Virus record (IMG/VR): IMGVR_UViG_3300013902_000001
Coordinates: 84,000 to 147,999 of that record
Length of the DNA stretch: 64,000 bases
Direction: 5' to 3' (one strand)
Source: a virus
Lineage: Duplodnaviria; Heunggongvirae; Uroviricota; Caudoviricetes
Below the pieces are notes generated by a model. The model was given only the letters and a program-made list of their open reading frames with translations, did not search any database and was not told the origin of the DNA. Below, piece after piece: positions 1,774 through 54,728 of the stretch. A program made the position numbers and the translations under genes. Position 1 is the stretch's first letter; each line of letters starts with the position of its first letter.

Positions 1774-1986
1774 CTAACTTCGTTTTAATTCCTTAGTCAA
1801 AAACTCGATAAATTCTTCTTCTGAATTACACTGCTTCGCTAAGGTAAATCCTCCGAAGTTAGGATCGTTTATGAATATTTCTAATTTATATAAATCTCCA
1901 GAAATAGTTACTTTTAATTGCCCTATAAATATACAATTATATAACTTTTCTATGAGGTCAGTAATACGTTTTTCGAGACCATCCAT
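1774..1986 (-). CDS. Hypothetical protein; start overlaps the terL stop
   Basis: ATG at 1984-1986. The ORF ends at a TAG and may read on. Confidence 0.3.
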   Translation of the reverse strand: MDGLEKRITDLIEKLYNCIFIGQLKVTISGDLYKLEIFINDPNFGGFTLAKQCNSEEEFIEFLTKELKRS

Positions 1987-4900
1987 AAAGCATAGTTGAA
2001 TTATTTGTCTATTTTACTTCTCCATACTAAACTCGTCCATATTCATCCCTATAATAGCCTACATTACCTAGAAGTTTGACCCGAGATTCTGTTTTAACTA
2101 CTTTGTTAATCATTTCTTCATCTGCTAATAGAGCCATTCCTAAAGCAGCTACATAGTCGAATTTTCTTTTATTGGCATAAGAATACCTGAGTAATTCATC
2201 TATAATAGCTGGAAACTAAATTGTTTCGCAATAATCGGTTATATATTGTTGAATTAAATCGAGTTGATGGTCAATAATAGTCGGTGTTGCAGGAACTCCA
2301 AATTGTTTAAAATTTGTTTTCCCAGAAGAATTGGCGGTCGCCTAAGGACGGTGCATCATATAGGACAAAGCTCCAAATCGCTCAAAATACTATTTAACAC
2401 TAACACGAGTTGCCTCCATTAACATAGGTGCATTATAGAATTTACACAGTTTTAAAGCATTATCATAAGCAGTCTTAACGTCTTTCGGCCGATCCTTGTA
2501 AGTCGCCACTATTTTAGGTTGTTGTAATCCATAGGCTCGTCGAAAAACAACGACAGCAAACTAAGACACATCATCCTGACCAGTTGAGGTTGTACTATCT
2601 CCGTCTATTGAATCGCAGTTATGCGTTGGAATATAATGACACATAAAGGTACTTGTCTCACAGTGATAATTATAAACAATTCCAGTATATTTAGAAACTT
2701 CTATTTCAGAAATCTTAATATAAATATAATTACAGGTTTCATCCTCAAAGAAGCACCTTGGAATTGCATGATCCGTATAAGTTTTATATTCCCATTTATC
2801 CAATTTTAAATCCGGTGCAGAATACATTCTTTTAAATTTATTGATCATATCACCGTGAACATCTAATGTCCATGCTTGATTCACAACACTGAGTCTCTGT
2901 TGACTAGTAATCTGATGAACTTTCTTAGTTGATCTCATCCAATGAACTGTAGAAATAATTCCCAATGAGAAGAGAATATCTTGCATATCCTCTAATAATT
3001 TTAAGGAACAACTTACAGCATTATAAGAATCCCTACTTTTACATAAACAACCGTCAGCGGAAAAATATCCTACAATTAAATTCATTTTTAAATCATTCGG
3101 AAGAAACTTTACCCATTCTGGCAAATTTTTATTTTTTGCTCCAATTCCAAAATTTTCTTTGAAAAAATTCCAAAATTGTTGACAATTAAACAGAACTTCT
3201 GCAGAATTTCCGAGGCCTTTCTGCCTACTTTTTACATGTCTATTTAAAACTTCCGATATAATTCTTTTTGCCTTTTCTATATAAAAAGTTTCGTTTAGAT
3301 TAAATGTAATTCCGACACATCCACAAGGTCGGTTTTTAGTGGGAGTTGCGCACCAACCATCTCCTAAAATTAATCCTACTAACCACCAAAAATCTTTATT
3401 TCCTAATGGATTGCCGACTCTTTGATCTATACGAATATTCGATTCGTCCCATTTTTCCCACGGAATAGGTTTCTCGTGCTTGTAAATATTAGGAACTTTT
3501 ACAAAATCTCCAACTTTTACGTCCTTCATAAGTTTGAATCTAAAATCATATACGTAATATCGTCTATGAAGTCCGTGTTTTTGGGCATAGGCACCTCCAT
3601 GATAATGCTATTTAGGAGTTGCACAATATATAGGATGTTCGCCTGTAAAAGTTGTGGTGCTAAAGATATTATTCAACTTAACTTTGTAGATATTTTCATC
3701 TTCCTTTTGATATTGTTGAAGGTTTATGATATTTACCGGTTTTCCGTTAATTGAATATAATTTATCATCTAATGTTACGTCTTCAACTTTTTTAAGTCCA
3801 TCCTAAGTAAGAACTTTCTCGCCTGGAGTTAAACATCCAACGCAGTATAAATTCTTAAAAGGAACCCCAGCTGAGTCGCATAATGGCAATTCCGCGATTT
3901 CTATCTTTCCGGAACTATCGAACTGAATCATTGGCCTTTGAGTTCGATCACAATTATCTCCGTCCATCGGCCAGATTAATTTAGCCTTTTTAGGTTTTTC
4001 TACGATTTTATGGATTTCTATCGCTGCTAATTGATCTGCTAATTTCTCTCGATCAAATCGATTCTCGCCTTCCATAATAAAGGCATCTTCCGGGGTAAAG
4101 CAATACTCCGACTTTTTAATTAGAAGCGATTGTGGATCGTCTATTTGAGCCCACTGATCAAGATAATACTTTTTAGCACGCTCTTCGTCAACGACTCCCC
4201 TTTCATCAAATCCCACCTCACCATCTTCTCCACCAAACCACATCGAGTAAGATGGAATAAAATAGCCAGTCATTTGTGGTTCGCCATTAGCCATAGAAGT
4301 ATTATAGAAAGGAAGCATCGTATAACCTCTAGGATTATAAAACATCTTTTTCAAACCTTCTACAGCAGGACCCATATCCTGAGACGTTCCGAAAACAAAT
4401 CGATTCCCAACCCTTCGACCAAGAATTCGCACAAGTGCTTCCCCACGCTCATAAGTGGAAATCAAACAAGGGTTGTTACCAGACTCTTCGAAATAGATAT
4501 TTTCAGTACGACCACCACGGAGTTTATCTGGAGTATCGGCAGTAATTCCTTCAACTATAGATTTCTTTCCAGCTTCTACACCGTCCTGATCTACAGTCGA
4601 AGCGACTTTCTTCATTAAAGTATTAGTTTTTTGTTTATGAAGGCCTAACGCACCTTCAGTGCAAGAATCCAGAAAATCAAATTCTTGCCAGACTTTTGAT
4701 AGTGTGTCTTTCACATATTTTTCTAGAAAAGCAGTAACTACATTATTACTCTAATCTATAAAAGTAAAAGCATGAGCACAATTGGAAGCGGCTATCTCAC
4801 TCGCTCCGACTCCACGGCTCTTGAAAGCCAATCCATCATATCCAGCCTTTTTACACATATCTAGATAGTGGAAATACTCATACTATTTATTTACAAATAT

Positions 4901-5476
4901 AGGAAAATCTTCAGCACGCTGAGCTACACTACCTTCAGCTACGATAGGACTTAAAAGCCTATAATAGTTAAGAAAAAAGTAATTTTGCCCAGTAATAGTA
5001 TATTTCCCAACTGTATATCCATAAGTGCATCTTCGGATTTCTTCTGTCCAGTGTTGCTACCATTTATAGGTATCAGGGTAATAATCTGTATATCGGCCAA
5101 ATTTCCTATAATGATCTGCAGCTTCTGTAAAAGCTTTTGGATCGAAATCCAGTCCTTTATCTTTCGTTATAGGGCGATAGCCTGTAAGTTCATAAGATAA
5201 GGAAGGATCAAAATATTTGATTTTTTCAGTTTTAGGAACATCCCATTCCTTTACTGATTGAATGAGCTCTGGTTCTGGTTCTGGAATGGGATTTTTTTCT
5301 GCTTCCAGATACTCAGTCATAGCTTTTAATTCCTCAGCATCTTTTTGTGCTTTGGTTTTAGTTTTTCTAACATAAGCTTTTTTAGGAAGCTTAGAAACCA
5401 TTTGTGCTCGTTCTTCCGCTGTGGGAGCATTAACCCAAGCACTCTTTTCAAAAGATTTACTTTCTTTCTTTTTCAT
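1958..5476 (-). CDS. terL: Terminase large subunit (ATPase plus nuclease) interrupted by an intein. Read through six in-frame TAG codons; ends at TGA 1958-1960
   Basis: ORFs 5057..5476, 3803..4714 and 2561..3529 are in one frame, separated only by TAG. Plus-strand cta triplets sit at 5057, 4883, 4751, 3803, 3608 and 2561. The C-terminal nuclease-like region reads ...IWPMDGDNCDRTQRP...; an ATPase-like stretch FKSRGVGAS lies N-terminal to it. Confidence 0.7.
2615..3835 (-). mobile_element. Intein (about 407 aa) with a LAGLIDADG homing-endonuclease domain, inserted in terL
   Basis: Intein block A follows the extein ...KNLYCVG: CLTPGEKVLT(TAG)DGLKKVEDV. Two LAGLIDADG motifs are present (LVGLILGDGW and IVGYFSADGC). 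The C-terminal end reads ...FMCHYIPTHN followed by the extein Cys (CDSIDGD...). Confidence 0.7.
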
Positions 5477-5679
5477 CGTTCCATTAAGAAGGGTTTCTTA
5501 TCACCTCTCAACCCAGAACTCTCTTCCTGCTCCTCTTTATATTTTCTTTCGAGTGCTTTTAAACCATCTAATGCTTTTTCTATCTATTGCATTTCATTAA
5601 GAAAATCTCGAATTTTAAATACTGGAGCACCAGAATCTAGGCGTTCGTCAAAATCTATACTTTTAACAAACTCTTTCAT

Positions 5680-6054
5680 CTAATGGATTTTGTTAGTGTA
5701 AGTTTCCACTAACTGACCTGTAAGTGAAGATTTTTCCTGAATTTCTCTATACTTTTTACAAGCAGCTCGGAAAACAGGATCGTTATATTCGTCTTCTGTT
5801 AATCCAGAAGCTTCCATAGCCACTTTATGGCGATTGGCCGGAGTGTCCTTTGCCATAGGAGCACTCCAGTCAATTTCCATGTATATACAGATTAATTCTT
5901 TAAAACCTCTAAGTTTTTCATGCCCAGAAGGATCTTCAGGGCATTTATTTCTTTCATCAGTCCATAGATCAGCAAATTCTTTTATTAGAAGAATTTCTGG
6001 TTGATTAATAGTGATTTTGTTATTTTGATAATCGTAACCAAAAAATTTAATCAT
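5680..6054 (-). CDS. Hypothetical protein just upstream of terL; terminase small subunit is possible by position only
   Basis: 124-aa ORF ending in TAG, so it may be longer. No motif recognised. Confidence 0.25.
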   Translation of the reverse strand: MIKFFGYDYQNNKITINQPEILLIKEFADLWTDERNKCPEDPSGHEKLRGFKELICIYMEIDWSAPMAKDTPANRHKVAMEASGLTEDEYNDPVFRAACKKYREIQEKSSLTGQLVETYTNKIH

Positions 6055-6059
6055 CTCTG

Positions 6060-8267
6060 TTAATCTTTAATATATTGTGTTATTTTTCCACCGTGTTTAA
6101 AGGAATAATTATTTGTTCCAATATAAGGTCCGTAAGTTACCCCTCTATCAAATTCTGGCACAGGAGTGGTAATAGGCTAATATGTAGGGTATTGCAAATT
6201 TTCACCGTGAATTGCCGGTATTAGGGCTGCATCAGGCGCATCCCAATAAACATAACGTGTATATCCAGGACTTCTAAGTTGTCCCTTTTTATGACCTTTG
6301 GTCGGACGTGTGGTAATCGTTTTTTCTCCGGTTTTAGTAAAATTGCCGACATCATTATTGAAAGGGTTTGCTTCTATATATCCAGTATCATATCTGATCG
6401 TTCTCGATTTTTTAGGCCGAACTGTCTTTTTCCAATAAGTTGGTTTTGTACGAGTTCGGTATCTCATCCCAGAGCCCTTAGTAGCAAATCCAAGATAAGT
6501 TTCCGGAGCAAAGGCTGTGTCTAGAACAGTATCTACGAATCCGTTACCAGTAGATCCAGTAACGTCAGTAAAGTAAGTTGGGGCCCCTCCGGAATATCCA
6601 CTTAAAATAGTATTATTCAGTCGATTACTAGTCCAATCACCAAATTTATAAGATCTTTCACCACTTGCCCAATCTCTAATATCTTTTACCGTTCCCCACA
6701 TCAACTCACTCGCTGGAGTTAAAGAATTTATAATGCCGACTCCAGCTTTATTTTCAGCATCTGCTACTTCATTCTAAAATCTTCTAGCTTGAGCTGCTTG
6801 GGAATTAACGCGACCGTTATCAGCAATAACGCCCGCTGCTGACATTGCCTTTTGAGCTTCTGGATCATTAACGAGTTCTTGCATTTCCTATTTTGATAGG
6901 TTGTGATCCTTCATCCACTTATCATATCCATCAGCTTTTAACGCTCCTGAGGCTACAGCATTTTTAAATTCTCGAATTCCCACGGATCTATTATAACTTT
7001 CACCCCGATTTTTAGATACCTCTTGATCGTAGGCATCCCCTTCATCATTCAAAGCTCGAAGTTTAGACGCCACTTCTGGAGAAACATAATTCAAAGCATT
7101 CTAATAATGATTATAATACTAGGGATCAGTAACAGCATTAGAAGCGTTCATTAAATATTTTAACATTTCTGGAGAGTTGTAATATTCACTAGCGCGAGCA
7201 TTTTCTGCAGAACTCACCCCTTGAATTTTACCAGCAGGCTGTTTTCCTTGATACTAACCTTTTCGAGTAGCGGTAAGAGTAGAGTCTCCGAGACCAGTAA
7301 TCCCTAAAGCGGAAGCTGTTTGATCTCCAACCAAACCATCAACTTTTAGAATATCCTTGTGTTGATTTTGGAAATTTTTAATCGCTGCTAATGTTTCTGG
7401 TCCAAATTTACCGTCTTCTGCAATCTGTTTACCTAAAGCCTGTTTATTTAGTGCTTGCTGAATTTGCCTTATTTGATCGGAGGAATATCTTCGATTATGC
7501 CAATAAGAAGCATTAACCCCTCCTTGCTAGAAAAAATTTATTTCTCCGCCTTTCTTTTTTATAGGCAACCCAGTACAACTATCCACTTCCATAATCTTCC
7601 CACCTACTCGAGCCAACTTGCATTTACAAGGTTTGATAGGAAGCCCTCTTTGAGCTTTTTTAGCTTTCTTGGCTTTTCCGCCACATTTCATTTGCTGAGC
7701 ACCTTGCATCATTTGCTGAATAACTTCTGCATATTGTATAGCTTGAGGATCGCCTTGCTAAGCTCTTTTAAGAATTTCTTTAATAGCACTTTGAGCTTGT
7801 GGATTTCCAGTCATGGCGTCTTCTACTAGCGTTTTAATTTCTTCCATAGGATCGGCAGTTACTCCGCCTTCTTGCATATAATCTGTTACCATTTTACCTC
7901 CTGTTTTAAACCAATTCGGGTTAATTGAATGCAGTAAATCTTGAAACCAATTACGATAATCATTGGCCTTAATACCTTCCTCTACGTAACTTCTATAACG
8001 CTTTAGTCTTTCAGGGTTATTTCCAGTTACTTCTACTGTATTTGTTACCGGGTAACCAATCATAGAATTATCCTCTGGTTCAGTCTAAGTTTTATATTTA
8101 TAATGACTATCAGGCCCACTTAAATGAACTTCGTACTCACTAGTACTCCCCCAGGGAGAAGATCCTGTTACTGTAAAAGTTGTATCAGATTTAAGAGTAT
8201 TAGGATCGGTGATTACTTGAGGTTGAGATACCCTACGTCCATCAGATGTCGTTCTAAATTTTGTCAT
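6060..8267 (-). CDS. Virion-associated protein with a peptidoglycan-binding domain, about 735 aa, read through several TAG codons
   Basis: ORFs 8085..8267, 7758..8063, 7527..7712, 6888..7094 and 6177..6704 share one frame and are separated only by TAG. There is a PG_binding_1-like segment: QALGKQIAEDGKFGPETLAAIKNFQNQHKDILKVDGLVGDQTASALGI. The 5' boundary is a TAA at 8283-8285; the 3' boundary is a TAA near 6060. Confidence 0.5.
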
Positions 8268-8821: not shown

Positions 8822-10270
8822 TTATTTTAAAATTAAACAATCACACGTTAAAATTAAACTAGCTGTATTAACAGCATTTAAAAGGGAATGTTCTGTAACT
8901 GCAAAAGGTTCTATAATTCCCATTTCATACAAATCTCCGTATTCTCCGCTTTTAAAGTTATAGCCATTCCAGAAAACATCGTCAGTGTTCAGATCTTTTC
9001 CTTGACTTAAAAGCTTAAATGGAATTTGTAATACATCATACAATTTACCGGAAACAGAACTTGGCACTCTCCGTATACTTCCGGAACCTGGTAAAATACC
9101 ACTTTCCAAAGCTGCTTGAGTGGCCATTACAGAATCTTCCACGCGATCTTTTCTCTCTTTTATTTCAACTTCAGAATATCCTCCAACATAAATAGTGGCA
9201 ATGCCAGAAGTAAAGTTAGCCAATCTTTTCTTGTGAAAATTCATTTCCATTTCAGTAACTTTTCCTTCTTCTATAATGCTTCTAATAGATGTTATTCGAT
9301 TCTTGATCTTTTCAGGATCCCCTTCAGTTCCTATAAAAGTTGTATTATCTTGTGAGATAATTACTTTCCGACAGGTCATTGATTCTCCTAAAAGAATCCT
9401 AAGATCTTCGATAGCAATTTCTCTAAAATTTCTATGTTCAGGACTTTTAACAGTGCACGATTTCAGCTTATCGTTACCTTGCTTATCATATAGATTACGA
9501 GCGAGGTTAAGAATAATTTCAGAATCGAAATCTGGTGCTATTAAAAGTAAAGATTTATCGGCTACCATAGCTCTGCCAGCTATTTCCGAAATCTTTTTGG
9601 TTTCTTCCATTTTAGTATCGGAAATATAAACCATTACATTTTCCAACACACATTGCCCCTTAAAGTTATTAACAAAATAAGGGGAAGAAAATCCACTATC
9701 GATTCTAAATCCTTCAGTATATTCAACTCGATCTGAAACATCTTCAGATTCAACAAACTGAACAATTCCATCTTTTCCAACTTTTGTAAAAGCTTCGGAA
9801 ACTAATTTGCCAATAACAGGATCATTATTAGCCGATAAAGTAGCAACTTTCTATAAATCCTCTGGAGAAGTTACTTCTCTTTTAAAAGTTTTAAGGTAAT
9901 CAATCGTTTTAGAACAATCCTGAGAAAGTTCTCGAGATAGTTCTATAGGATTTTCACAATCCTTAAATTCATTTACTAGTGCTCTAGCGATTACCAAACT
10001 AGTAGTGGAACCATCTCCAATAGTTTGAGCGGTTTTAACTGATATATCCCTCATTACTTCTATACCCATAGAAATATAAGGATCGGGATCATTTACGGCT
10101 GCTGCCACAGTAGCACCATCTTTTGTTATCTTGACCGAGGAAGGATATTTAATACACACATTCTTTCCTTGTGGTCCATACGTTTTTTCGACTGCATCTG
10201 CAATCAAATTTACACCTTCGATCAGCTTTTCTCTAGCATCTTGATCGAATTTTACATTAGCATAATTCAT
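8822..10270 (-). CDS. groEL: GroEL-like chaperonin (Hsp60). It contains one in-frame TAG (9851-9853) and a 60-nt segment (9781-9840) that is out of frame
   Basis: N-terminal MNYANVKFDQDAREKLIEGVNLIADAV...TAQTIGDGSTTSLV resembles GroEL [27 protein letters not shown]...AGDGTTTATVL. The middle KVGKDGIVQFVESEDVSDRVEYTEGFRIDSGFSSPYFVNN resembles [41 protein letters not shown]. The C-terminal ...GILPGSGSIRR...MGIIEPFAVTEHSLLNAVNTASLILTCDCLILK matches the GroEL C-terminus. Ends in TAA. Confidence 0.85.
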
Positions 10271-10467
10271 TCTCCAAATAATTTATTATATTCTTCTTTT
10301 GAGATCCAACGTTCAGTTGAATAAACTCCTAATAATTTCTTGTAATATTCTGGATTATCAGAAGTATTAATTTTATATTGAACCCAAATTCTTTGCTGAT
10401 CAAAATCTATCCATCTTAATCCAGCATCTATTAGTTTTAACATTCTTTCGCAGGTCATATTTCCCAT
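10267..10467 (-). CDS. Hypothetical protein; its TGA stop overlaps the groEL ATG (ATGA)
   Basis: ORF track. The stop, plus-strand tca at 10267-10269, shows TGA working as a true stop in this module. Confidence 0.4.
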   Translation of the reverse strand: MGNMTCERMLKLIDAGLRWIDFDQQRIWVQYKINTSDNPEYYKKLLGVYSTERWISKEEYNKLFGE

Positions 10468-26994: not shown

Positions 26995-27367
26995 CAAAAG
27001 TTTTTTCATATATATTAAGGTATAAACTTATTGTAGGGGAAGTTTCTCGTTTTATAACCTATCCCTCTTTACGAATTGAAACCGACTAAAGTAAGGTTAT
27101 AAGTGGGTTTCAAAAACTTGACTTCCCGGGAGTCTTTACTGCTAAGTTATCCTAGATGGTTATAAGCAGATTTTTAACTGTTTCCGAGGCAAATAAAAGA
27201 TAGTATATAATATCTTTTATGGTTGGGGCGCGGCGAATAATAAGTTTTCCGGACCTTATTATTCGGATAGGAAACAGTTTTTGCCTATTAGATTAAAGGC
27301 AGATCGTTAGCTTTTCAAGCTAAAGAACTAGGATCGTTACCTAGATAGGCTACTAATTACAATTATT

Positions 27368-34111: not shown

Positions 34112-35311
34112 TTGTTTATGAAAACTCCAGAAAATATAAGAAAATTTCGAAAATATCTAAAGGATAATAACATTCAAGAACATGTGATAGATTTCTCGGA
34201 TCCAGAAGCAATTGTTATTGGAGCATATTGTAGTTTAGCAGGACCTTATAAATTTCATTTTTATGAGTTTAGTAAATTCGGAATGATTCATTTTACTCCT
34301 AGAGGGCAAGTTACTAGTAATTTTGGAATTTATAGACTATTAATAGAATCAGCTTTAATTGATAAAAAATTAATAAAATTAGGTATTGTTTTAACAGTTT
34401 ATAGGTATAGTATTCTTAAATGGATTTATGATCACCAAAAACTTGTTAAAAATCTCAATGATTTAGGATTAAACTTCGATGAATATCTATATGATAGAAT
34501 TATTTCTGAAGATTCCAATCCTAAAAAAGCCTTTAAATATGATCCTAGAATTTATTTAAGTGCTCAGCATAATCATAATAATTATGACACTACTTATAAA
34601 GCAATTGATTATATTCAAAGTGTTTTAAAAGAATCGTGGAAATTTTATCAAGATAAAAACTATGATTATAATACTAGAGTTTTATTATTAAGTAAATCTG
34701 AATTTAGTTATGGTCCAGCCTTAGGTAATTATACAAAAGATCCTAAGTTAGTCCGATATATTGCCGAACACAATAGTTCGAAGTTGCGCGATTATTGGAA
34801 TATGAGAGATAAACTTAAAGAATTTGTAAATCTAAAAGATTATCCGAAATTTCCACAAAATTTGTCTAAAAAACATGATGAATTAGTAGTTTTTTACAAT
34901 AAATATCAAGACAAGCTTCAGAAAGAAAAGTTAATTCCACTACAAAAAGAATATGAGAAAAAATTCTTAAAATCTGCTAAAAAATATGAGTATGAATTTG
35001 AGGATTATATAATTAAAACATGTTCTGATTTAATGGAATTGATTGTCGAAGGACGAGAATTAAATCATTGTGTAGCTAGTTATACAGATTCCGTTTCAAA
35101 AGGTAAAGAATATATCTTATTTTTAAGAAAGAAATCTGAGCCAGAAATTCCTTTTTATACTATTGATCTTATCCCTGATGGGCGAATTCGACAAATTCGT
35201 GGAAAATGTAATTGTTTGCTTACTCCAGAATTAAAACAAATTATTCAACCTTGGATTCAAAAGTTTAATTTAACTGGAAATCCAGACGAAATTCATTATC
35301 ATTTATGGTAG
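34112..35311 (+). CDS. PcfJ-like domain protein
   Basis: The C-terminal EGRELNHCVASYTDSVSKGKEYILFLRK...IPDGRIRQIRGKCNCLLTPE resembles the PcfJ-like family. Confidence 0.35.
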   Translation: MFMKTPENIRKFRKYLKDNNIQEHVIDFSDPEAIVIGAYCSLAGPYKFHFYEFSKFGMIHFTPRGQVTSNFGIYRLLIESALIDKKLIKLGIVLTVYRYSILKWIYDHQKLVKNLNDLGLNFDEYLYDRIISEDSNPKKAFKYDPRIYLSAQHNHNNYDTTYKAIDYIQSVLKESWKFYQDKNYDYNTRVLLLSKSEFSYGPALGNYTKDPKLVRYIAEHNSSKLRDYWNMRDKLKEFVNLKDYPKFPQNLSKKHDELVVFYNKYQDKLQKEKLIPLQKEYEKKFLKSAKKYEYEFEDYIIKTCSDLMELIVEGRELNHCVASYTDSVSKGKEYILFLRKKSEPEIPFYTIDLIPDGRIRQIRGKCNCLLTPELKQIIQPWIQKFNLTGNPDEIHYHLW

Positions 35312-41361: not shown

Positions 41362-43407
41362 AATTAAATCGGGAGATTCCGTTTCTCAAATTCCAGAATT
41401 GACTAGTTCTTTGGATCAATTGAATATTGTATATAGTAAGATGCTATCTTCCTTAATAGGAATGTTTGATCCAAAAGATATATTTGATAAGCTTTCACCA
41501 GAAGTAGAAAAGATGTTTATGGAACATTTTGGAGGAATTCCCCAAGTTCATAAATTGCTTTTACCAGATGGAGAAGAACATCCTTTTACAGGAGTAACTC
41601 ACGAAATGTTTGATACAGTGCTTAATTTAGTCAATCTAGATATTCCAGTTTATCTTTGTGGACCTGCTGGGGTTGGTAAAAATTATCTGGTTAAACAAGT
41701 TGCGGAAGCTTTAGGAAAAGAGTTCTATTTTAGTAATGCTGTTACTCAAGAATATACATTAGTCGGTCAAATTAATTAATATTTTTCAAAATTGAAGGTT
41801 ACGAAGAAAAAAATTACAGACGACCTTCGTAAACAAATGAACTAGTTGTTTAATGAAGGTAAATCCATTACTGAAATTGCAACAATTTTAGATGTAGATA
41901 GACATACTGTTGCTAGACATTTAGTAGATAAAAGTAAGTATAATGAAAATTGTTTTTCAACTATTACTGCTGAATCTGCATATTGGCTAGGATTTATGTA
42001 CGCAGACGGATATGTCGGATCTACTCGAAATACTGTTGGAATTTCATTAATGAAATCAGATTTCAATCATTTACAAAAGTTTTCTAAATTTATATAGTAT
42101 AAAGGAAATTGTGTAAGAATTTTTCATGGGAAGTCATCTTTTGGAGATCATTATTATTGTAGAGTTAATCTTCGTAATAAGAAAATGCACGATGATTTAG
42201 TATCCCTAGGTTGTGTTTCTCTTAAAACTCATATATTACAATTTCCTAAATTTATGTATAAATCTGAATATTTAAAAGATTTTGTGCGAGGATTTTTTGA
42301 TGGAGATGGATGTCTAAGTTTAGACAAACGTGGAAACAGAGTCGAAGCTTCATTTATATGTGCAGTTGAGTAGTTTATAATTGATTTACAAGCTGCTATT
42401 AAAATTTTAGGTTTTGAATCTACAAAATCTAAAAGTAATAAATGTCATCGAATCCGCGTAAAAAATGCTTTTAAGTTTTTAGATTTCATATATAAAGATG
42501 CTGCTGTATATTTAGATAGAAAATTTGAAAAGTATTATTCTCTCAAGCAGAGGAGAGAAGGCCGTCTTATGGAGTAATCTATAAGATTATTACAGGACAA
42601 TATCGGTGAAGCCGTTTAGGTAATACCGAGATAATCTAACAAATTGCGAAAGGTTGTTAGACATCGTAACGCATAGAGAGTGAATAAATATAATCTCTCC
42701 ACGAGTGCCCTGCGCCCTTAGGGGTGAAAATATATGCTGAGCTAGACTAGAATTAACTAGTCGTATTCCATTAGGATATGAGAGAAATCTCTAGAAGTTT
42801 TGGATAAAAAACCAAAACGATAACAAAACTGTTTCGCGACGCGAATGGTATATTCCATGAAACTCAGTTTTATGATGCTTTTACTAAAGGAGGAATTTTC
42901 TTTTTGGATGAGATAGATGCTTCTATTCCTGAGGTTTTAATTATCTTAAATGCTGCTATTGCTAATAGATATTTTAACTTTCCATGTGGTAGAGTTTATG
43001 CTCATCCGGATTTTCGTGTAGTTGCTGCTGGTAATACATTAGGAACTGGTGCAGATTCTCAATATACAGGCCGCTATTGTTTGGATAGAGCAAGTCTAGA
43101 TCGATTTGCTATAGTTCATATAGACTATTCGCCTAAAATTGATTTGGAAAGTGCTGGAGGAGATTCTGAATTATCTAAATTTGCTCAGACTTTTCGGCAA
43201 GTTTGTGCAGATACTGGTATTCAGTGTTTATGCTCTTACAGAAGTATTTCTCGTATTCATTCTATGGAATCTGTAAATTTAGCCCCATTAAAGGAAATTA
43301 TGAAAATGGCTTTAGTAAAAGATTTGGATATTGATGATATTAATATTCTTCATTCTGAATTACAAAAGCGAATTCCTTCTAATAAATATGTAGATGCTTT
43401 AAAATGA
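41354..43407 (+). CDS. AAA_5 (MoxR/dynein-related) ATPase gene split by a group I intron. Exon 1 is 41354-about 41779; exon 2 is about 42846-43407
   Basis: Exon 1 carries Walker A: VYLCGPAGVGKNYLV. Exon 2 reads ...GIFHETQFYDAFTKGGIFFLDEIDASIPEVLIILNAAIANR...VVAAGNT (Walker B and sensor). The intervening 1.1 kb holds a LAGLIDADG ORF and a P-like element aaattgcgaaaggttgttag (42641-42660). Confidence 0.6.
41846..42577 (+). mobile_element. Intron-encoded LAGLIDADG homing endonuclease, intact only if two in-frame TAGs (42095, 42371) are read through
   Basis: Motif 1 LGFMYADGYVG; motif 2 GFFDGDGCLSL. 41846..42097, 42098..42373 and 42374..42577 are one continuous frame broken only by TAG. Confidence 0.6.
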
Positions 43408-48276: not shown

Positions 48277-48867
48277 ATGAAACAGAAGAAAGAAATTATT
48301 AATGAAGCTCTTCTAAATTGTTTGGAAGATCTTTATAAATATGCAGTTCCGACTACTTCCTATGCAGCACTATTAGAAGCACACAAACAAGGCCAACCTT
48401 ATGATAAAGAATATTGGGCTCATCATTATTTGCCTGAAAAGTTATTTCGAGAGATAGTGGATCATTATAAGCACGCTTATAGTCTAGAACCCTATTTTAA
48501 GGAATACACTGATGTTCTAAAAGACTATCTTTTGGATGGAGGAACAACCGAAATCTATGTAAAAGACGACTCTCTAGTAGGAGGTCGAAGGGAATATACT
48601 AAAACTCCTAAACTCAAAGATGTAATTGGTGAGGAAGCAGCTGATAAAGTTGCAGAACTTATTAAGAAATGTCAAGAGTTTTATAGGGTTGATTGGTCTC
48701 GAACTGAAGGTTTTGAGTTTGAAATATTTAATTGTGGTCCATGCTGTAATGCAGAACCTGTAAAGAAGTATTGGGAATCTCAAGGTGTAGAAGTTGATTG
48801 TGATGACGATAAAATTATAAAAAACTTCTATAAAGAAGAATATGGCGATGATGAGGAGGATAACTGA
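48277..48867 (+). CDS. Hypothetical acidic protein
   Basis: ORF track, 196 aa. Confidence 0.3.
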   Translation: MKQKKEIINEALLNCLEDLYKYAVPTTSYAALLEAHKQGQPYDKEYWAHHYLPEKLFREIVDHYKHAYSLEPYFKEYTDVLKDYLLDGGTTEIYVKDDSLVGGRREYTKTPKLKDVIGEEAADKVAELIKKCQEFYRVDWSRTEGFEFEIFNCGPCCNAEPVKKYWESQGVEVDCDDDKIIKNFYKEEYGDDEEDN

Positions 48868-49802
48868 TGAAGACGACCCTGACTTCGAGTGAGAAAATTT
48901 CTCACGAGTATTGTTGCACTATCGTTAAAATAGGTGAAATTAAGCCTATAGAAGGTGCTGATAAGATAGTTCAAACTGAGGTTGAAGGAAGAACTATTAT
49001 TATAGGTAAAGACGAAGTGAAAGAAGGAGATATAATGTTTTATGTCTCTAATGAGTGTGAGTTAAATAAAGATTTTCTTTTTGTAAACAATCTTTTTGAT
49101 GATCCCACTCTTAATAAAGATCCTGAAAAGAAAGGATATATTAACAAACGAGGTCGTGTTCGGATGATCAAACTTCGTGGAGTATATTCTATGGGGTTTT
49201 TGTTTACAGTGGAAGCAATGAAAAATTATTTTCCTGCTTTTAATGTAGAAGAGGAAAATCTTTCTGAACGAATTGGTGAAGATTTCGATACCGTAGATGG
49301 AACATTATTTGTAAAAGCTTATGTTCCTCCTATGCCAGAACCTAATATTCGACTGACTCGAGAACAGCATCGAGCTAAGAAATTAGCTTTTGATCGAATG
49401 ATTCCAGGGCAATTTGCACTGCATTATGACACAAAACAGCTCCAGAGGGAAATATCAAGATTAAATCCTGATGATGTTGTTTGTGCCAGCACTAAGGTTC
49501 ACGGATGTGTGGATGCAGAAACATTAATTAATACCAATTTAGGTCAGTTTACTATTAAGCATATAGTATATAATAAACTTGATTGTTTAATAGAAGCTTA
49601 TGATACTTATACTCAGCAAAAAGTTTTTGTTCCAATCGATCAATATTATCATATTTCTAATGATGGTGATTGGTATGAATTAGAACTGGAAAACGGAATA
49701 AAATTAACTATAACTGGTAATAATCCGGTGTTTTTACCGGATCGTAATTGCTATCGTAAAGTTTGGGATCTTAAACCTGGAGATAGTGTATTATTTTCAT
49801 AA
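48867..49802 (+). CDS. RNA ligase N-terminal half (tRNA-binding OB-like domain plus nucleotidyltransferase motif I, KVHG), fused to an N-terminal split-intein fragment (49506-49799)
   Basis: EIKPIEGADKIVQTEVEGRTIIIG is like a Trbp111/CsaA tRNA-binding domain. ...ASTKVHG matches motif I (KxHG). Then CVDAETLINTNLGQFTIKHIV (intein block A), ending 98 aa later at TAA. Confidence 0.55.
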   Translation: MKTTLTSSEKISHEYCCTIVKIGEIKPIEGADKIVQTEVEGRTIIIGKDEVKEGDIMFYVSNECELNKDFLFVNNLFDDPTLNKDPEKKGYINKRGRVRMIKLRGVYSMGFLFTVEAMKNYFPAFNVEEENLSERIGEDFDTVDGTLFVKAYVPPMPEPNIRLTREQHRAKKLAFDRMIPGQFALHYDTKQLQREISRLNPDDVVCASTKVHGCVDAETLINTNLGQFTIKHIVYNKLDCLIEAYDTYTQQKVFVPIDQYYHISNDGDWYELELENGIKLTITGNNPVFLPDRNCYRKVWDLKPGDSVLFS

Positions 49803-49885
49803 AAACTGTTAACTTATTTTTTAATTTTTTTCTAATATTTTACTTTTGTACTAAAAAAATTCACGAACCATTAATTTTAAATATT

Positions 49886-50587
49886 ATGAAATATCGAAAT
49901 TGTCCTTTTTGTGGAGAGTAGATTGCTTTAGGTAATCCACATCACTTAAAAAATTGTCAGAAATATAAAGAATTTCTTGATACTAATTTAGAAGAACTAT
50001 TGAAATTATATAAAGATGGTTACTCTGTTGTTGAGTTAGCAGAAAAGTACCACATCTTGTATCATCAAATTCAAAAAATTATTAAAGATAGCGGAACTCC
50101 ATTACGTAATATTAAAGATGCTTGCACTACTAAAAGACGTAAAGAACGCTATAAAAAAACATGTCTTGAACATTTTGGTCAACCTCATAATTTCTGCAAA
50201 GAGAGCGAATCTCGAAAAGCTTGGGAAAAACGTCTTTTAGATGAGGAAGGTATTGTAAATGTTTTTCAACGGAAAGAAGTAAAAGAAAAAATAGTAGATT
50301 CACTTATTAAACATTATGGATTAAATTACAAACAGGTTTGTAATTCGAAAGAATATTATATTAATAAGTGGATTCAAGATGGTGCAACTTCAGAAGAAGC
50401 ACAGGCTCGTTATGAACGAATGTGTTTTTTAAAAGGGGAAGCTAATACTAAACAGCATTATATCAATAAATACGGTGAAATAGATGGATTAGAAAAATGG
50501 AAAGAACATGTAAAGAAATTACGTCCTAATTTTCAGATTTCTTCACAATCTACTTATATATCGTCACTTAATATTAACTTTTATTAG
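49886..50587 (+). mobile_element. Free-standing gene between the intein halves: Zn-ribbon plus HTH protein (homing-endonuclease-associated), with one in-frame TAG
   Basis: MKYRNCPFCGE(TAG)IALGNPHHLKNCQKY... runs on into ORF 50000..50587 in the same frame. The HTH-like segment is YSVVELAEKYHILYHQIQKII. Confidence 0.4.
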
Positions 50588-50590
50588 CTT

Positions 50591-50932
50591 TTGGTTGAAA
50601 ATAATATTGATTTTGAAGTAGAATATTGTTTAACTAGTTCAGATGGGCATGCTAGATACTTTGATTTTAAAGTTGATAATTATTTGATTGAATTAAACGG
50701 TGATTTTTGGCACGCTAATCCTAAAATTTATGCTGAAAACGATATTATTAATTTACCTGGTTCTGACGGGGTTTTAGCTAAATCTTTGTGGGAAAAAGAT
50801 GCTCAAAAACTACAATTAGCTCAACAAAATGGTTTTACGGTCATTACTTTATGGGAGTGTGATCTTAATGATAGTAAAAAATTAGAAAAAATTAAACGAA
50901 TTATGAAATTATATGCAAATAATAAAAATTAA
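50591..50932 (+). mobile_element. Vsr/DUF559-like (PD-(D/E)XK) endonuclease; a candidate free-standing homing endonuclease
   Basis: ELNGDFWHANPKIY...NGFTVITLWECDL. Confidence 0.5.
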
Positions 50933-51794
50933 AAAAATAACTCCAGTTTCAATTCGTGATCGATACGATTTAACTGTAAGCTCCACACATAATTTTTTTG
51001 CTAACGGTATACTGATTCATAATACTAGCGCCATTTTTGGTAACATTTTGACACTTCAACCGCGATGGGGTGGGATTTATTCTAAAATCTTCAACTATCT
51101 TCCGAAATTCCTTCAATTTACTAAGAAAGGTTATGATGTAATTTATTCTTCCAGAACAGTTATTAAGAATAAAACTATTAATCCAAAAGTTAATGGTGGT
51201 TATTATGATACTGATGTTTGGGGAGAGTATTATGAGCTTCTAAAAGATGTGATTCCTGCTGGTATTACTATTTATGGGGAAATATTCGGGTATCTATCTG
51301 ATTCAACTCGTATGATTCAAAAAGGTTATGACTATGGGTGTAATCCTGGAGAAAATAAACTAATGATTTATCGAGTTACCAAGACTGAAGAGGATGGGAG
51401 TAAGAAAGAGTATAATATTAACGAAGTAATGACTTTTACTTTGAAAATTAAAGATTCTTTACAAGAAATTGGAAAAGATCCTAATAAACTATTCTTACTA
51501 CCATTACTTTACCATGGAACTTTGAAAGATTTGTATCCAGAAATTGATCCTGCTAATCATTGGCATGAAAACGTATTAGAAGCATTGAAAAATGATACTG
51601 AGCATTTTGGTATGGAGAAGAAAGAACCATTATGTCGTAATAAAGTGCCTAGAGAAGGCATTTGTCTACGTATTGATGATGATCCTATAGCAGAATGTTT
51701 TAAATTGAAGGCCCTAAGCTATCTTCAGAAAGAGGGAGCTGAAATAGATTCCGGAACTTATGAAGATATTGAGACACAAGAACGATATGAGTAA
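50913..51794 (+). CDS. C-terminal split-intein fragment (50913-51023) fused to the RNA ligase C-terminal half
   Basis: MQIIKIKKITPVSIRDRYDLTVSSTHNFFANGILIHN|TSAIF (intein blocks F/G, then the +1 Thr). Downstream ligase-like motifs: YGEIFGY, EGICLRID, KLKA. Confidence 0.55.
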   Translation: MQIIKIKKITPVSIRDRYDLTVSSTHNFFANGILIHNTSAIFGNILTLQPRWGGIYSKIFNYLPKFLQFTKKGYDVIYSSRTVIKNKTINPKVNGGYYDTDVWGEYYELLKDVIPAGITIYGEIFGYLSDSTRMIQKGYDYGCNPGENKLMIYRVTKTEEDGSKKEYNINEVMTFTLKIKDSLQEIGKDPNKLFLLPLLYHGTLKDLYPEIDPANHWHENVLEALKNDTEHFGMEKKEPLCRNKVPREGICLRIDDDPIAECFKLKALSYLQKEGAEIDSGTYEDIETQERYE

Positions 51795-51984
51795 TAATAA
51801 ACAAATTGTAACTTCAGGAGGAACTGGAGTATGTGGTATGACTTTCGTAGCTTTAATGGTATTGAAGTTATGTGGAGTTATTAATTGGAGTTGGTGGTGG
51901 GTTACTGCACCACTGTGGATTCCTTGCGGCTTAGGTATAATAATACTAATTATAGCCGGTATAATTTATCTTTGTGTAAGTTAA
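51760..51984 (+). CDS. Small membrane protein
   Basis: 74 aa with TM segments. Confidence 0.3.
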   Translation: MKILRHKNDMSNNKQIVTSGGTGVCGMTFVALMVLKLCGVINWSWWWVTAPLWIPCGLGIIILIIAGIIYLCVS

Positions 51985-52649
51985 TGAAAATTGGAGCATT
52001 AAGTGATATGCATGGTGATTTCCCTTATGTAGAGAACTGTGATGTTCTCTGCATTTGTGGAGATACTGTCCCGTTAAAACTCCAGTGGGATGACGACAAA
52101 TGTATTCCTTGGATTATTAATGAGTTTTTTGATTGGGTTTACGGATTGCCTTGTTTATATGTAGTTTGGATTGCAGGGAACCACGACGCAACGTTACAGT
52201 CTTGGGGAAAAGAAGCCATTCGAACTGCTATTAGAGAGAGTAATCTAGCTAATAAACTTTTTTATTTAGAAGATGATCTAATTGAACTAGATGGAGTAAA
52301 ATTTTATGGCTGTCCTTGGTGTATTAATCTTGACCCTTCTCGTTGGGCTTTTGTAACTGGTGGTGAAAAATATCTTAAAATTCCAGATTGTGATGTTTTG
52401 TTAACTCATCAGCCACCTTTTGGTGATGTAGGATTTGATCCATGGCAACGAAGAAATTTTGGTAGCACCTATCTTAGAAGTGTAATTGAAGATAGAAATA
52501 TCAAAGTATGCTGCAGTGGCCATACACATCAAGGTATGAGAGGTCCGGAAACTATTGGAAAAACGAAGTGTTACAATGTTTCTGTTAAAGACGATTATTA
52601 TAATTTAAGGTATCCTGTAACTTATATAGACTATGAAATTGTTCAATGA
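51985..52649 (+). CDS. Calcineurin-like metallophosphoesterase
   Basis: MKIGALSDMHGDF...ICGDT...WIAGNHD...GHTH. Confidence 0.6.
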
Positions 52650-53198
52650 AACAGAAATTGCTTCTATGGAGGAATTTGCTGAAAATCACAAAAAATGTTA
52701 TGAAAAGAATAATTCTAATAAGAAACCTCTCGGATTTACTATTACTACTAAATCTACTGGAATTGGGGCTCAAATTAAAATTACTTGTGATTGCTGCGGA
52801 GAAACCTCTGATGTTAGCGATTACAGCACATGGTGATTATGAAAACGTTATTATGGCTCGATGATTGGAGAGATCCTTTTGAAAATCCAGAATGGCTTAA
52901 CTTTTCTCCTATAGGTAAAGATGTGGAAGTTCACTGGGTTAAGTCCTATGATGAATTTTCAGACTGGATTGTTAAAAATGGATTGCCAACTGCTATTTGT
53001 TTCGATCACGATTTAGGCGATATTGATGATAAAACAGAGTTTACTGGATATGACTGTGCTAAATGGTTAGTAAGATACTGTATTAACTATCACAAACCAT
53101 TACCTATTTGGAAAGTAATATCTTCTAATCCAGTTGGCAAAGAAAAAATTGAAAGTTGGCTAAGTAATTTTCAAAAATATCAACGAGAAAATGAATAA
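52633..53198 (+). CDS. Two small hypothetical genes (52633..52836, 52830..53198)
   Basis: ORF track. Confidence 0.3.
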
Positions 53199-54117
53199 AA
53201 TTATTGTTTTGAGTGGTCCCCCTGCTTCAGGGAAAACTGTTTTTGCTAGAGACTATATTCAAACTCATAAAGATTGTGTAATCGTTAATAGAGACGATTT
53301 CCGATCTTCCAGAGGAGATTATTTGGTTCCTTCTCAGGAAGACTATATCTCGGATATAGAAGAAGCTGCTGTTCGTTCTGCACTTAAAAGAGGACTTACA
53401 CCTATAATAGATGCTACTAATCTAAATCCTAGGACAATTTCTAAATGGAATACCATTGCTGACGAGTTCGGAGTGGAAGTAGAAACAAAATCGTTTTATA
53501 TACCATTTAAAGACGCTGTAGAGCGAGATCGTCTTAGAGGTGAGGCAGGTGGTAGATCTGTCGGAGAAAAGGTCTTAAAAGACTTTTATTTGCGTTATTT
53601 CGAAGAAGAGTTTCGGAAAGAGGTTTATACCGACCATACTTTTATTAGAAATGACGATAATCTCGATTTGCCTCCTTGTATAGTAGTTGATTTAGATGGA
53701 ACGGTAGCATTACATCAAGGTAGAAGTCCTTTTGAATGGGATAAAATAGACACCGATAAATGTGATCCTCGAATGAAGCAAATAATAGAAAGATATATAC
53801 TCGATGGAGTAAATGTTATCTTTCTTACTGGTAGAAACAAAACTGCTGTAGCTTACGCTAAAACGTTTGATTGGTTAGCAAAATATTTCCCATATTATAA
53901 AACTGATATGAATACACTCAAGAAGTTTTATAAATGGAATCTAATCATGCGAGCTGAAAAGGATTATCGACCAGCACCTATTAGTAAAAAAGAACTTTTT
54001 GAACAATATGTGGATGGTAAATATAATGTTTTAGCAGTTTTTGAAGACTCTAACAGATGTGTGGAAATGTGGAGAAGTTTAGGATTATTAACTTTACAAC
54101 CTGCAGATAATAAATGA
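53191..54117 (+). CDS. pnk: Polynucleotide kinase-phosphatase (T4 PseT-like)
   Basis: N-terminal P-loop kinase VLSGPPASGKTVFA; C-terminal HAD phosphatase IVVDLDGT. Confidence 0.7.
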   Translation: MNKIIVLSGPPASGKTVFARDYIQTHKDCVIVNRDDFRSSRGDYLVPSQEDYISDIEEAAVRSALKRGLTPIIDATNLNPRTISKWNTIADEFGVEVETKSFYIPFKDAVERDRLRGEAGGRSVGEKVLKDFYLRYFEEEFRKEVYTDHTFIRNDDNLDLPPCIVVDLDGTVALHQGRSPFEWDKIDTDKCDPRMKQIIERYILDGVNVIFLTGRNKTAVAYAKTFDWLAKYFPYYKTDMNTLKKFYKWNLIMRAEKDYRPAPISKKELFEQYVDGKYNVLAVFEDSNRCVEMWRSLGLLTLQPADNK

Positions 54118-54728
54118 GTAAACGCCATTATGATTATTCTTTTTCGAAGGGGAAGGGGATTTGGTTTAGTAGCGATAGTCACTATTATCATCGTAACGTA
54201 ATGGATTTCTGTCATAGGCCCTTTTCTTCAGTAGAAGAAATGAATCAAAAACTGATAGAAAACTGGAACTCGGTTGTTGGAAAAGATGATGTAGTTTTCC
54301 ATTTAGGAGATTTTTGTTTCGGAGATACGGAAAAGTGGAAATCTATATTAGAACAATTAAACGGAAAGATTTATTTAACCAAAGGTAATCATGACGATGA
54401 TATGCCTGCAGGAGTAAAAGAATATTTTCAAGATGTTCAATATCAATATCAAATTAAAGTTGAAAATCAAAGAATTATTCTTAATCACTATCCATTGTTA
54501 TGCTATGCTGGTTCTTATAAAGAGACAAATCCTGTTTATAATTTTTTTGGACACTGCCATAGTGGTCCACTTTCTATCGGGAGGGATATTTCTAGACTTT
54601 CGGTATGTTTTCCAGAGCAATATGATGTAGGAGTTGATAATAATAATTACTTTCCAATATCTTTCTATCAAGTGCAAGAGAAAATAAAACAGCGTCAGGA
54701 AGATGCCAAAAACAAAGAAAAAATTTGA
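54114..54728 (+). CDS. Metallophosphoesterase
   Basis: FSSDSHYYHRNV...HLGDF...GNHDDD...GHCH. Confidence 0.55.
   Translation: MSKRHYDYSFSKGKGIWFSSDSHYYHRNVMDFCHRPFSSVEEMNQKLIENWNSVVGKDDVVFHLGDFCFGDTEKWKSILEQLNGKIYLTKGNHDDDMPAGVKEYFQDVQYQYQIKVENQRIILNHYPLLCYAGSYKETNPVYNFFGHCHSGPLSIGRDISRLSVCFPEQYDVGVDNNNYFPISFYQVQEKIKQRQEDAKNKEKI

Follow-up and report, generated by a model that had tools for sequence, protein, structure and literature searches.

How can a phage produce a complete RNA ligase from a gene that is broken inside motif I, and when during infection would it produce the endonuclease encoded within the break? These questions are raised by a locus of the Caudoviricetes record IMGVR_UViG_3300013902_000001 (IMG/VR). 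We analysed positions 84,000 to 147,999 of this record, a stretch of 64,000 nucleotides (nt) that we call the window and from whose first letter coordinates are counted. The answer that we favour, and consider very probable, is that the gene codes for an Rnl5-type RNA ligase fractured by a split intein, with a single, late-made Vsr-like endonuclease encoded between the halves, in a phage that recodes TAG. The parts of the locus are as follows, with their lengths in amino acids (aa) and the evidence for each in brackets; dN/dS stands for the ratio of non-synonymous to synonymous substitution rates.

48867..49505, plus strand: ligase N-extein, 213 aa, with an OB domain at aa 17-113, a linker and motif I up to K210-V-H-G213 (PF21189, PHROG 968 and a match to the OB domain of Naegleria gruberi RNA ligase, NgrRnl)
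49506..49802, plus strand: predicted N-intein, 98 aa, with Cys1 and block B T-G-N-N, followed by TAA (match to NrdJ-1, TIGR01445)
49803..49885, plus strand: AT-rich spacer, 83 nt, upstream of the endonuclease gene, with TACTTTTG at 49841-49848
49886..50932, plus strand: putative homing endonuclease gene, 348 codons and TAA (single frame, homologues, profile match to 3r3p, dN/dS)
50913..51023, plus strand: predicted C-intein, 37 aa, with blocks F and G and an H-N end (TIGR01443)
51024..51794, plus strand: ligase C-extein, 256 aa and TAA, starting with the +1 Thr and containing YGEIFGY, PREGICLR and FKLK (PHROG 968, gap-free alignment, Foldseek)

A preliminary description of this DNA had proposed a fractured RNA ligase gene with split-intein halves in separate open reading frames (ORFs), to be checked by comparing the joined exteins with RNA ligase families. 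The ORF ends are as it described them. ORF 48867-49802 codes for 311 aa before its TAA stop, with ...STKVHG followed by 98 aa that open with CVDAETLINT, and ORF 50913-51794 codes for 293 aa, the first 37 of which close with ...NGILIHN and are followed by TSAIFGN... and the ligase motifs. The family comparison bears out the proposal as well. The two exteins cover complementary stretches of the PHROG 968 RNA-ligase profile (positions 7-194 for the N-extein and 212-397 for the C-extein, of 398), with the remaining part of the nucleotidyltransferase domain being carried by the C-extein. Joined, they form a protein of 469 aa that aligns in one piece, with 96-100% coverage, to the contiguous ligases of 348 phage records. 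The alignment of the spliced protein with the contiguous homologues L002-L004 (46-52% identity) is gap-free over the junction, and K210, H212, G213, T214 and S215 are invariant in it; K210, H212 and G213 are also invariant among 37 contiguous homologues. As for the predicted ATP-dependent sealing of 3'-OH/5'-PO4 nicks in RNA, the spliced ligase has kept the motif I Lys (K210) as well as EG in motif IV and KxK in motif V. The break lies inside motif I, between Gly213 and Thr214 (K-V-H-G|T-S). As judged from this seamless fit, the two ORFs are the predicted halves of one nucleotidyltransferase.

Sister phages provide the state of the gene without the insert. Three syntenic contigs from human-gut metagenomes (L005, L006 and L007; ~88-90% nucleotide identity) have the ligase as a single uninterrupted 469-aa gene; the product of one such intein-free allele is 95% identical. 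The window has 1518 nt more, which comprise the N-intein, the spacer, the endonuclease gene and the C-intein. Once these are removed, the coding sequences of the window and L005 are both 1410 nt long and align without gaps at 91% identity. The intein-free junction in L005 reads ...GTTAAGTGCCATGGA|ACCAGTGGGATTTTTGCTAAT.... Identity between the two genes falls to 68% within 60 nt around the insertion point, and eight of the 24 amino-acid differences are found in residues 207-223, a local divergence that would be expected from homing co-conversion or from divergence of the target site.

The locus might also be an artefact of assembly or sequencing, i.e. a contiguous intein with a nested endonuclease gene, the stop codons of which are errors. 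This is hardly conceivable, since the same layout and stops occur in L001, in an 85%-identical allele (L011) and in very different phages. In addition, the endonuclease gene is in another frame than the intein halves, and the 83-nt AT-rich spacer precedes it. L001 is an independent IMG/VR contig that is 99.7% identical and has the same layout and the same TAG codons. Five of its 34 differences from the window are packed in 22 nt of the ligase N-extein (49286-49307, plus strand), which could be a small recombination patch.

To which family does the ligase belong? By sequence, its OB domain matches that of NgrRnl and Pfam PF21189 (PHA02142 OB fold; 38 bits for a cutoff of 27). Sequence searches of the PDB, a profile-based one included, give no match for the nucleotidyltransferase half, and the assignment of its fold needed structure prediction followed by Foldseek. 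The AlphaFold model of the spliced ligase (pLDDT 87, pTM 0.79) has NgrRnl as its top 13 matches (PDB 5cot and related; E ~3e-16), with target-normalised TM scores of 0.62-0.69 spanning both domains. REL1, T4 Rnl2 and T4 Rnl1 rank far below. On the basis of this model, the enzyme is predicted to be an ATP-dependent Rnl5-type ligase, with OB and nucleotidyltransferase domains in this order from the N-terminus. The OB domain had first been described as unusual for an RNA ligase. It is in fact the N-terminal domain of NgrRnl, as captured by PF21189 above its cutoff.

We next examined the intein halves. Fused, they form a 135-aa intein that passes the Pfam Intein_splicing model (45.1 bits, cutoff 35.8) and the NCBIfam models TIGR01445 (30.1 bits, cutoff 24.5) and TIGR01443 (31.3 bits, cutoff 15.6). 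In the PDB, the NrdJ-1 intein comes out as the best relative (E 6e-10 over nearly the full length), and gp41-1 is among the matches. The halves carry opposite net charges, -6 for the N-intein and +3 for the C-intein. The preliminary description had made its proposal depend on the intein blocks; blocks F and G are present as it required and the fused intein passes the family models, but its block B lacks the usual His. Opposite the T-G-N-N of this block, the alignment has TPDH in NrdJ-1 and TPSH in Pho RadA. Among the features of class 1 inteins, Cys1, the C-terminal His-Asn and the Thr at +1 are present, and the block B His is missing.

This replacement is a property of a whole subfamily. Among the best 120 homologues of the N-half, 73 have an N-intein directly after K-x-H-G, and we used these as the N-intein family. 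All 73 have a block B of the T-x-N-N type and Gly at position -1, and Cys1 and the block B Thr are kept throughout. Similarly, the H-N|T-S end is found in 27 of 27 C-halves examined. In 62 of the 72 comparisons made within the N-half family, conservation is higher in the intein than in the extein. The motif-I inteins of more distant ligases retain the block B His; hence, the change from His to Asn is a derived, fixed trait of the subfamily, and its presence throughout the subfamily provides no argument for decay. One protein of the same subfamily, P0308, has a contiguous (cis) mini-intein with the same T-G-N-N at the same site of the ligase, and thus all three allelic states are seen: empty, cis mini-intein and fractured. 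Three fractured N-halves (P0116, P0124 and P0130) are 423-431 aa long with an unchanged intein; their length is due to a ~110-aa Lys/Glu-rich insert, probably a coiled coil, in the N-terminal region before the nucleotidyltransferase part. Other ligase-like proteins, P0347, P0367, P0376, P0383 and P0396, whose nature was judged by eye, also have a related contiguous mini-intein at their motif I (K-x-D/H-G), with the canonical block B His. Thus, it seems that inteins of this lineage have landed repeatedly in motif I of nucleotidyltransferases.

The fractured allele L011 served as reference for estimates of selection. The dN/dS values are 0.10 for the N-extein, 0.06 for the N-intein, 0.09 for the endonuclease gene, 0.08 for the C-intein and 0.12 for the C-extein. 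All five parts are under strong purifying selection.

These data bear on the possibility that, having lost the block B His, the intein halves no longer splice and serve to assemble the ligase non-covalently, or that the ligase is inactive. The T-G-N-N in place of T-x-x-H speaks for this possibility, and an Aeromonas phage is reported to assemble its fragmented NrdA non-covalently (PMC3045599). We nevertheless consider it unlikely. The Asn is fixed in 73 of 73 N-halves, conservation persists at Cys1, at the Thr of block B, at the His-Asn end and at the Thr in +1, and the dN/dS of the intein is 0.06-0.08. The cis allele P0308, which has the same T-G-N-N, would give a non-functional ligase if it remained unspliced. 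An unspliced 135-aa domain would occupy the active site, as the break is three residues past the catalytic Lys. In addition, a small group of natural inteins devoid of the block B His, that of Tko CDC21-1, is cited in PMC6333167 as able to splice. From the conservation of the intein (dN/dS 0.06-0.08) and the existence of the cis allele P0308, we infer that the two halves of the ligase intein trans-splice. No compensatory residue for the lost His was identified in it.

Does the segment between the intein halves contain one gene or two? It had been described as two free-standing genes of endonuclease type, with an in-frame TAG in the first. The ORFs 49886-50587 and 50591-50932 are in one frame, split solely by a TAG and with no TAA or TGA inside, and they form a single gene of 348 codons. 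Its in-frame TAG codons are codon 12 (49919-49921), which is the one already reported, and codon 234 (50585-50587). A known protein, P0001, is 348 aa long and 99% identical to the predicted product over 100% of its length, and dozens of full-length homologues have 327-374 aa. The gene overlaps the ORF of the C-intein, which starts at 50913, by 20 nt at its 3' end.

The predicted product has a zinc ribbon (C6, C9, H20 and C24), a helix-turn-helix (HTH)/DUF7487 region and a C-terminal Vsr-like nuclease domain (~aa 228-335). In the nuclease domain, D260, E269, W275, H276 and D305 are invariant in 20 homologues; W323, E324 and the zinc-ribbon residues are likewise invariant. A single-sequence search of the PDB yielded just Vsr (E 0.5), and a profile of the family was required to reach 3r3p (E 5e-4), followed by E. 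coli Vsr (E 0.35). We take 3r3p to be I-Bth0305I; the database label of the chain is 'Mobile intron protein'. The invariant D...E...WH...D motifs and the profile match to 3r3p support the Vsr-like nuclease that had been proposed between the halves.

The alternative that had been proposed, namely a TAG-damaged zinc-ribbon/HTH gene followed by a small Vsr-like nuclease gene in a decaying element, agrees with the three pieces obtained under the standard code and with the partial ORFs called here by databases in L010 and L011. It is nevertheless very improbable, given that 348 codons in one frame contain no TAA or TGA at ~30% GC, that the full-length homologues of 327-374 aa include a standard-code copy (L008) without internal stops, that the dN/dS of the endonuclease gene is 0.09 and that the genome is rich in TAG within late genes. 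Moreover, the ORF of the small nuclease would begin at TTG and lack a DNA-binding domain. We also rejected pseudogenization of the endonuclease: relative to L011, the gene has 134 substitutions, no frameshift and no TAA or TGA, its dN/dS is 0.09 and full-length homologues exist. The first TAG is conserved in L011, the second is CAG (Gln) there, and L011 has three other TAGs. Gene calling with the standard code breaks such endonucleases into fragments, which calls for caution with annotations. The empty-site allele, the divergence near the junction and the stronger conservation of the intein relative to the extein suggest that this single endonuclease may promote homing by cleaving the insert-free allele.

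How TAG is read in this phage depends on the region of the genome. The window contains two large blocks of genes on opposite strands.

1-21 kb, minus strand: packaging and lysis genes (large terminase, portal, endolysins), taken as late genes
23-64 kb, plus strand: replication, nucleotide-metabolism and RNA-repair genes, taken as early genes

We counted 71 in-frame TAGs in 4,294 codons of the minus-strand late genes, the TAG-rich genes being those of the terminase, portal and endolysins, and zero to two in 6,535 codons of 20 plus-strand early genes; the latter are probably true stops. Several early ORFs appear to use TAG as their stop, and TAA or TGA follows within a few codons (e.g. near 35300 and 41360). 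As the phage uses TAG inside its late genes, the TAGs of the endonuclease gene are most likely sense codons. One of the endonuclease TAGs of L010 is at a near-invariant Gln (18 of 19 homologues), and most others are at variable K/E/Q sites. From two direct correspondences, the CAG of L011 and the Gln column of L010, together with precedent, we infer that TAG is read as Gln. The sole tRNA gene found in the window with ARAGORN is that of a tRNA-Glu(UUC) (27282-27353, plus strand). In the absence of a suppressor tRNA in the window, we surmise that the machinery for the code change is encoded elsewhere in the genome or escapes detection by ARAGORN. TAG suppressor tRNAs were detected in just 40% of TAG-recoded genomes (Borges et al., bioRxiv 10.1101/2021.08.26.457843). 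The large terminase ORF (1958-5497, minus strand) has 11 in-frame TAGs, two of them within a contiguous 406-aa intein (2618-3835, minus strand) that has a canonical T-G-E-H block B and a LAGLIDADG domain (32.2 bits, cutoff 22.5).

The layout of N-half, endonuclease gene and C-half recurs in many diverged gut phages that are clearly different from one another, with distinct genetic codes.

L008, standard code: no internal stops in the endonuclease gene, none in the ligase halves
L010, TAG-recoded: 14 TAGs in the endonuclease gene, none in the ligase halves
L009, TGA-recoded: all eight Trp codons of the endonuclease gene are TGA, mostly in conserved Trp columns, compared with zero of nine in the ligase halves
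L009, positions 6010-7131 and 9144-10031: endonuclease gene and nearby LAGLIDADG gene

The LAGLIDADG gene near the fractured gene of L009 has four TGA and two TGG codons, and the ligase halves use TGG for nine of nine Trp. As these halves wholly avoid the recoded codon, the comparison between the endonuclease and its host gene is a clean one. Apart from the endonuclease gene of the fractured ligase, a single plus-strand gene of the window has TAGs in frame, three in number, and it too codes for a LAGLIDADG endonuclease (described below). The TAG content of the two endonuclease genes pooled differs from that of the early genes with a Fisher p of 7e-5.

These patterns led us to propose, tentatively, that the genetic code may act as a systematic gate on the homing endonucleases that early genes of recoded phages contain, be it in a split-intein fractured gene or in an intron, and, with the same reserve, that the ligase intein may splice without the block B His. 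If so, recoded stops would stand in for the hairpin or late-promoter control of standard-code phages, DNA cutting would be confined to late infection and the interrupted host gene would still be expressed early. The ligase intein would then use a compensating mechanism not yet described and be a candidate orthogonal tool for trans-splicing.

The TAG and TGA codons might instead have no regulatory role, having built up neutrally in a selfish gene that need not be translatable ahead of the code switch, or because the element moves among phages of the same code. That most TAG positions are variable polar sites that differ among alleles, that the endonuclease gene of the window has merely two and that L008 copes without recoded stops are all in keeping with this explanation. 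Its practical outcome would be the same, with no full-length protein before suppression. Codon 12 is TAG in L001 and L011 as it is in the window, the first TAG of L010 is in the adjacent codon, and the bias in L009 (eight of eight Trp as TGA vs zero of nine in the flanking halves) is stronger than drift suggests. The control by hairpins or late promoters of standard-code fractured genes is also missing here. On balance we regard a purely neutral origin as somewhat unlikely.

We analysed the spacer that precedes the endonuclease gene for signals of its own. No regulatory hairpin was found in it: its minimum free energy is -4.8 kcal/mol (z = +1.1), and 172 of 200 shuffled sequences fold as well or better. 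L011 and L009 both retain the motif TACTTTTG, which precedes the endonuclease start by ~40 nt. It resembles what we take to be the Bacteroidota -7 promoter consensus, TAnnTTTG. Motifs of this type are not enriched in the window (66 found, ~87 expected); hence, we claim no promoter for it. A sigma-70 promoter scan gave hits at or below the shuffled expectation, and terminator-like hits fall within coding sequence.

The second interrupted gene of the early block was revealed by comparison with a sister phage (L005).

41767-42859, plus strand: insert of 1093 nt in an AAA_5 ATPase gene, in place of 29 nt of L005
41837-42577, plus strand: LAGLIDADG endonuclease ORF with in-frame TAGs at 41843, 42095 and 42371

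The portion of the ATPase gene downstream of the insert has no start codon, and the 271 nt that follow the LAGLIDADG ORF fold at z = -3.1. The exon flanks near the junction diverge from L005. Rfam scans of the 41-52 kb region and of 42560-42870 detected no group I or group II intron and no other RNA family. The insert is probably an unclassified self-splicing intron.

Several observations weigh against our interpretation of the fractured ligase gene and its code gating. The block B His, essential in many inteins, is Asn here, and the TIGR02306 model (DRB0094 equivalog) yields 33.6 bits, far below its cutoff of 151. This weak match indicates that the ligase has an Rnl5 architecture but belongs to a distant phage branch and is not an equivalog. 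The nuclease resembles solved structures only weakly (E 5e-4 for 3r3p and 0.35 for Vsr). Its gene has just two TAGs, and taken alone it gives a Fisher p of 0.014; the enrichment could simply be due to relaxed constraint, the gene being dispensable at early times. ARAGORN found no suppressor tRNA in the 64-kb window, and the locus lacks the hairpin reported for most published fractured genes. Lastly, splicing, ligase activity and DNA cleavage are all predictions from sequence.

We propose the following sequence of events for the fractured ligase. As both ligase halves are devoid of TAG, the standard code would suffice for their early translation. The oppositely charged intein halves would associate and trans-splice, which would restore motif I and yield the 469-aa ligase. 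The enzyme would act in RNA repair with the products of the neighbouring PNKP, cREC and phosphoesterase genes. The full-length endonuclease, with TAG at codons 12 and 234, would appear only once TAG-to-Gln suppression has started, late in infection. It would then cut the intein-free ligase alleles of co-infecting relatives, into which the whole insert would be copied, with co-conversion of ~25-35 nt of flanking exon on each side.

The genes directly downstream of the ligase are on the same strand, and each passes a Pfam cutoff.

51885-52649, plus strand: metallophosphoesterase
52830-53198, plus strand: cREC_REC (cyclic-phosphate-processing receiver)
53191-54117, plus strand: PNKP kinase and HAD phosphatase
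54114-54728, plus strand: second metallophosphoesterase

The order of this cluster (51885-54728) is kept in L005, L006 and L011. The neighbouring PNKP, cREC and phosphoesterase genes suggest a role of the ligase in RNA repair. A role in tRNA repair had initially been proposed on account of the OB domain, but this domain is a hallmark of Rnl5 ligases and does not point to tRNA in particular; the hint of repair comes from the neighbours. We also rejected the OB domain as a tRNA-specific feature, its matches to Trbp111 and the C-domain of MetRS being weak OB-fold matches (E ~1e-2).

The window has ~30-35% GC and is a portion of a larger phage genome, related contigs extending to ~172-177 kb. Its portal protein is closest to those of uncultured human-faecal phages (44-47% identity) and merely 20-23% identical to those of annotated crAss-like phages. 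When the locus was compared at the nucleotide level with deposited phage genomes, the sole match was a short 71%-identical stretch in Lak phages, the phage itself being absent from that collection. We take the source to be a human-gut phage that recodes TAG and has crAss-like phages as distant relatives. A 487-aa ORF on the late strand (8822-10282, minus strand) has one in-frame TAG and, by eye, the look of a GroEL-type chaperonin.

With this locus, an RNA-repair enzyme would join the genes fractured by split inteins. The fracture of the ligase is common in large human-gut phages, and its three allelic states are available for comparison. The intein also belongs to a large naturally split subfamily that is uniformly devoid of a residue often deemed essential, which could interest protein engineers. 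A survey of actinophage inteins reported contiguous ligase inteins only in RtcB-type and tRNA-splicing ligases. Our literature search, of incomplete coverage, yielded no paper that joins inteins, RNA ligases and crAss-like phages, and an earlier description is possible.

Of the known systems, the ligase resembles NgrRnl and DraRnl (Rnl5) by its N-terminal OB domain, the nucleotidyltransferase domain that follows and the motif I lysine. In contrast with them, it belongs to the PHA02142/PHROG 968 group, is ~130 residues longer (469 vs 340 aa) and shares only ~18% identity. The endonuclease shares with the I-Bth0305I/Vsr-like family (PMC3239194; PDB 3r3p) a match to the catalytic-domain profile and the D...E...WH...D pattern, and differs by its N-terminal CxxC...H...C zinc ribbon and HTH/DUF7487 region. 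With the Tko CDC21-1 group (cited in PMC6333167), the ligase intein has in common that it belongs to a family naturally devoid of the block B His that seems to be still functional. It is of another lineage, however, with Asn at this position and Gly at -1 instead of a bulky Leu, and it is naturally split.

The closest precedents for the arrangement itself are the fractured genes described by Dassa et al. 2009 (PMC2677866), from which the gp41-1, NrdJ-1 and IMPDH-1 split inteins come. There too, the gene of a conserved phage enzyme is broken into two ORFs on the same strand. The sizes of our intein halves are within the published ranges (98 aa for 88-105 in the N-inteins, 37 aa for 33-54 in the C-inteins), as is the 20-bp overlap between the 3' end of the endonuclease gene and the C-intein ORF (6-69 bp). 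A Vsr-like endonuclease, with its nuclease domain at the C-terminus, is likewise encoded between the halves, and NrdJ-1 is the closest solved intein. This endonuclease family is present in half of the published fractured genes and in group I introns as well (PMC2677866). In contrast, RNA ligase is absent from the eight types of host genes in that study (zero mentions), and the ligase locus has neither a 5' hairpin nor a late-promoter element. One or the other is found in the 5' untranslated region of the endonuclease gene in 15 of 16 published fractured loci, a frequent but not strictly defining feature (PMC2677866). The ligase locus further differs by the recoded stops in its endonuclease gene and the Asn in place of the block B His. 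By sequence, it appears to belong to the known class of fractured genes, its novelty residing in the host enzyme, in the putative replacement of the hairpin by recoded stops and in the His-less block B.

As for the code, Borges et al. (bioRxiv 10.1101/2021.08.26.457843) described an endonuclease in an early gene of recoded phages that, as here, prefers the recoded stop and is predicted to be made late. As they drew the same inference for an intron endonuclease, the principle of gating was already known and is extended here. Theirs is encoded in a group I intron of Agate phages that recode TGA, whereas the present element would be a gene fractured by a split intein, found in both TAG- and TGA-recoded lineages, with the host protein restored at the protein level. 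The idea that recoded stops time a selfish endonuclease, put forward for an intron-borne element and TGA, is thus widened to elements associated with inteins and to TAG lineages.

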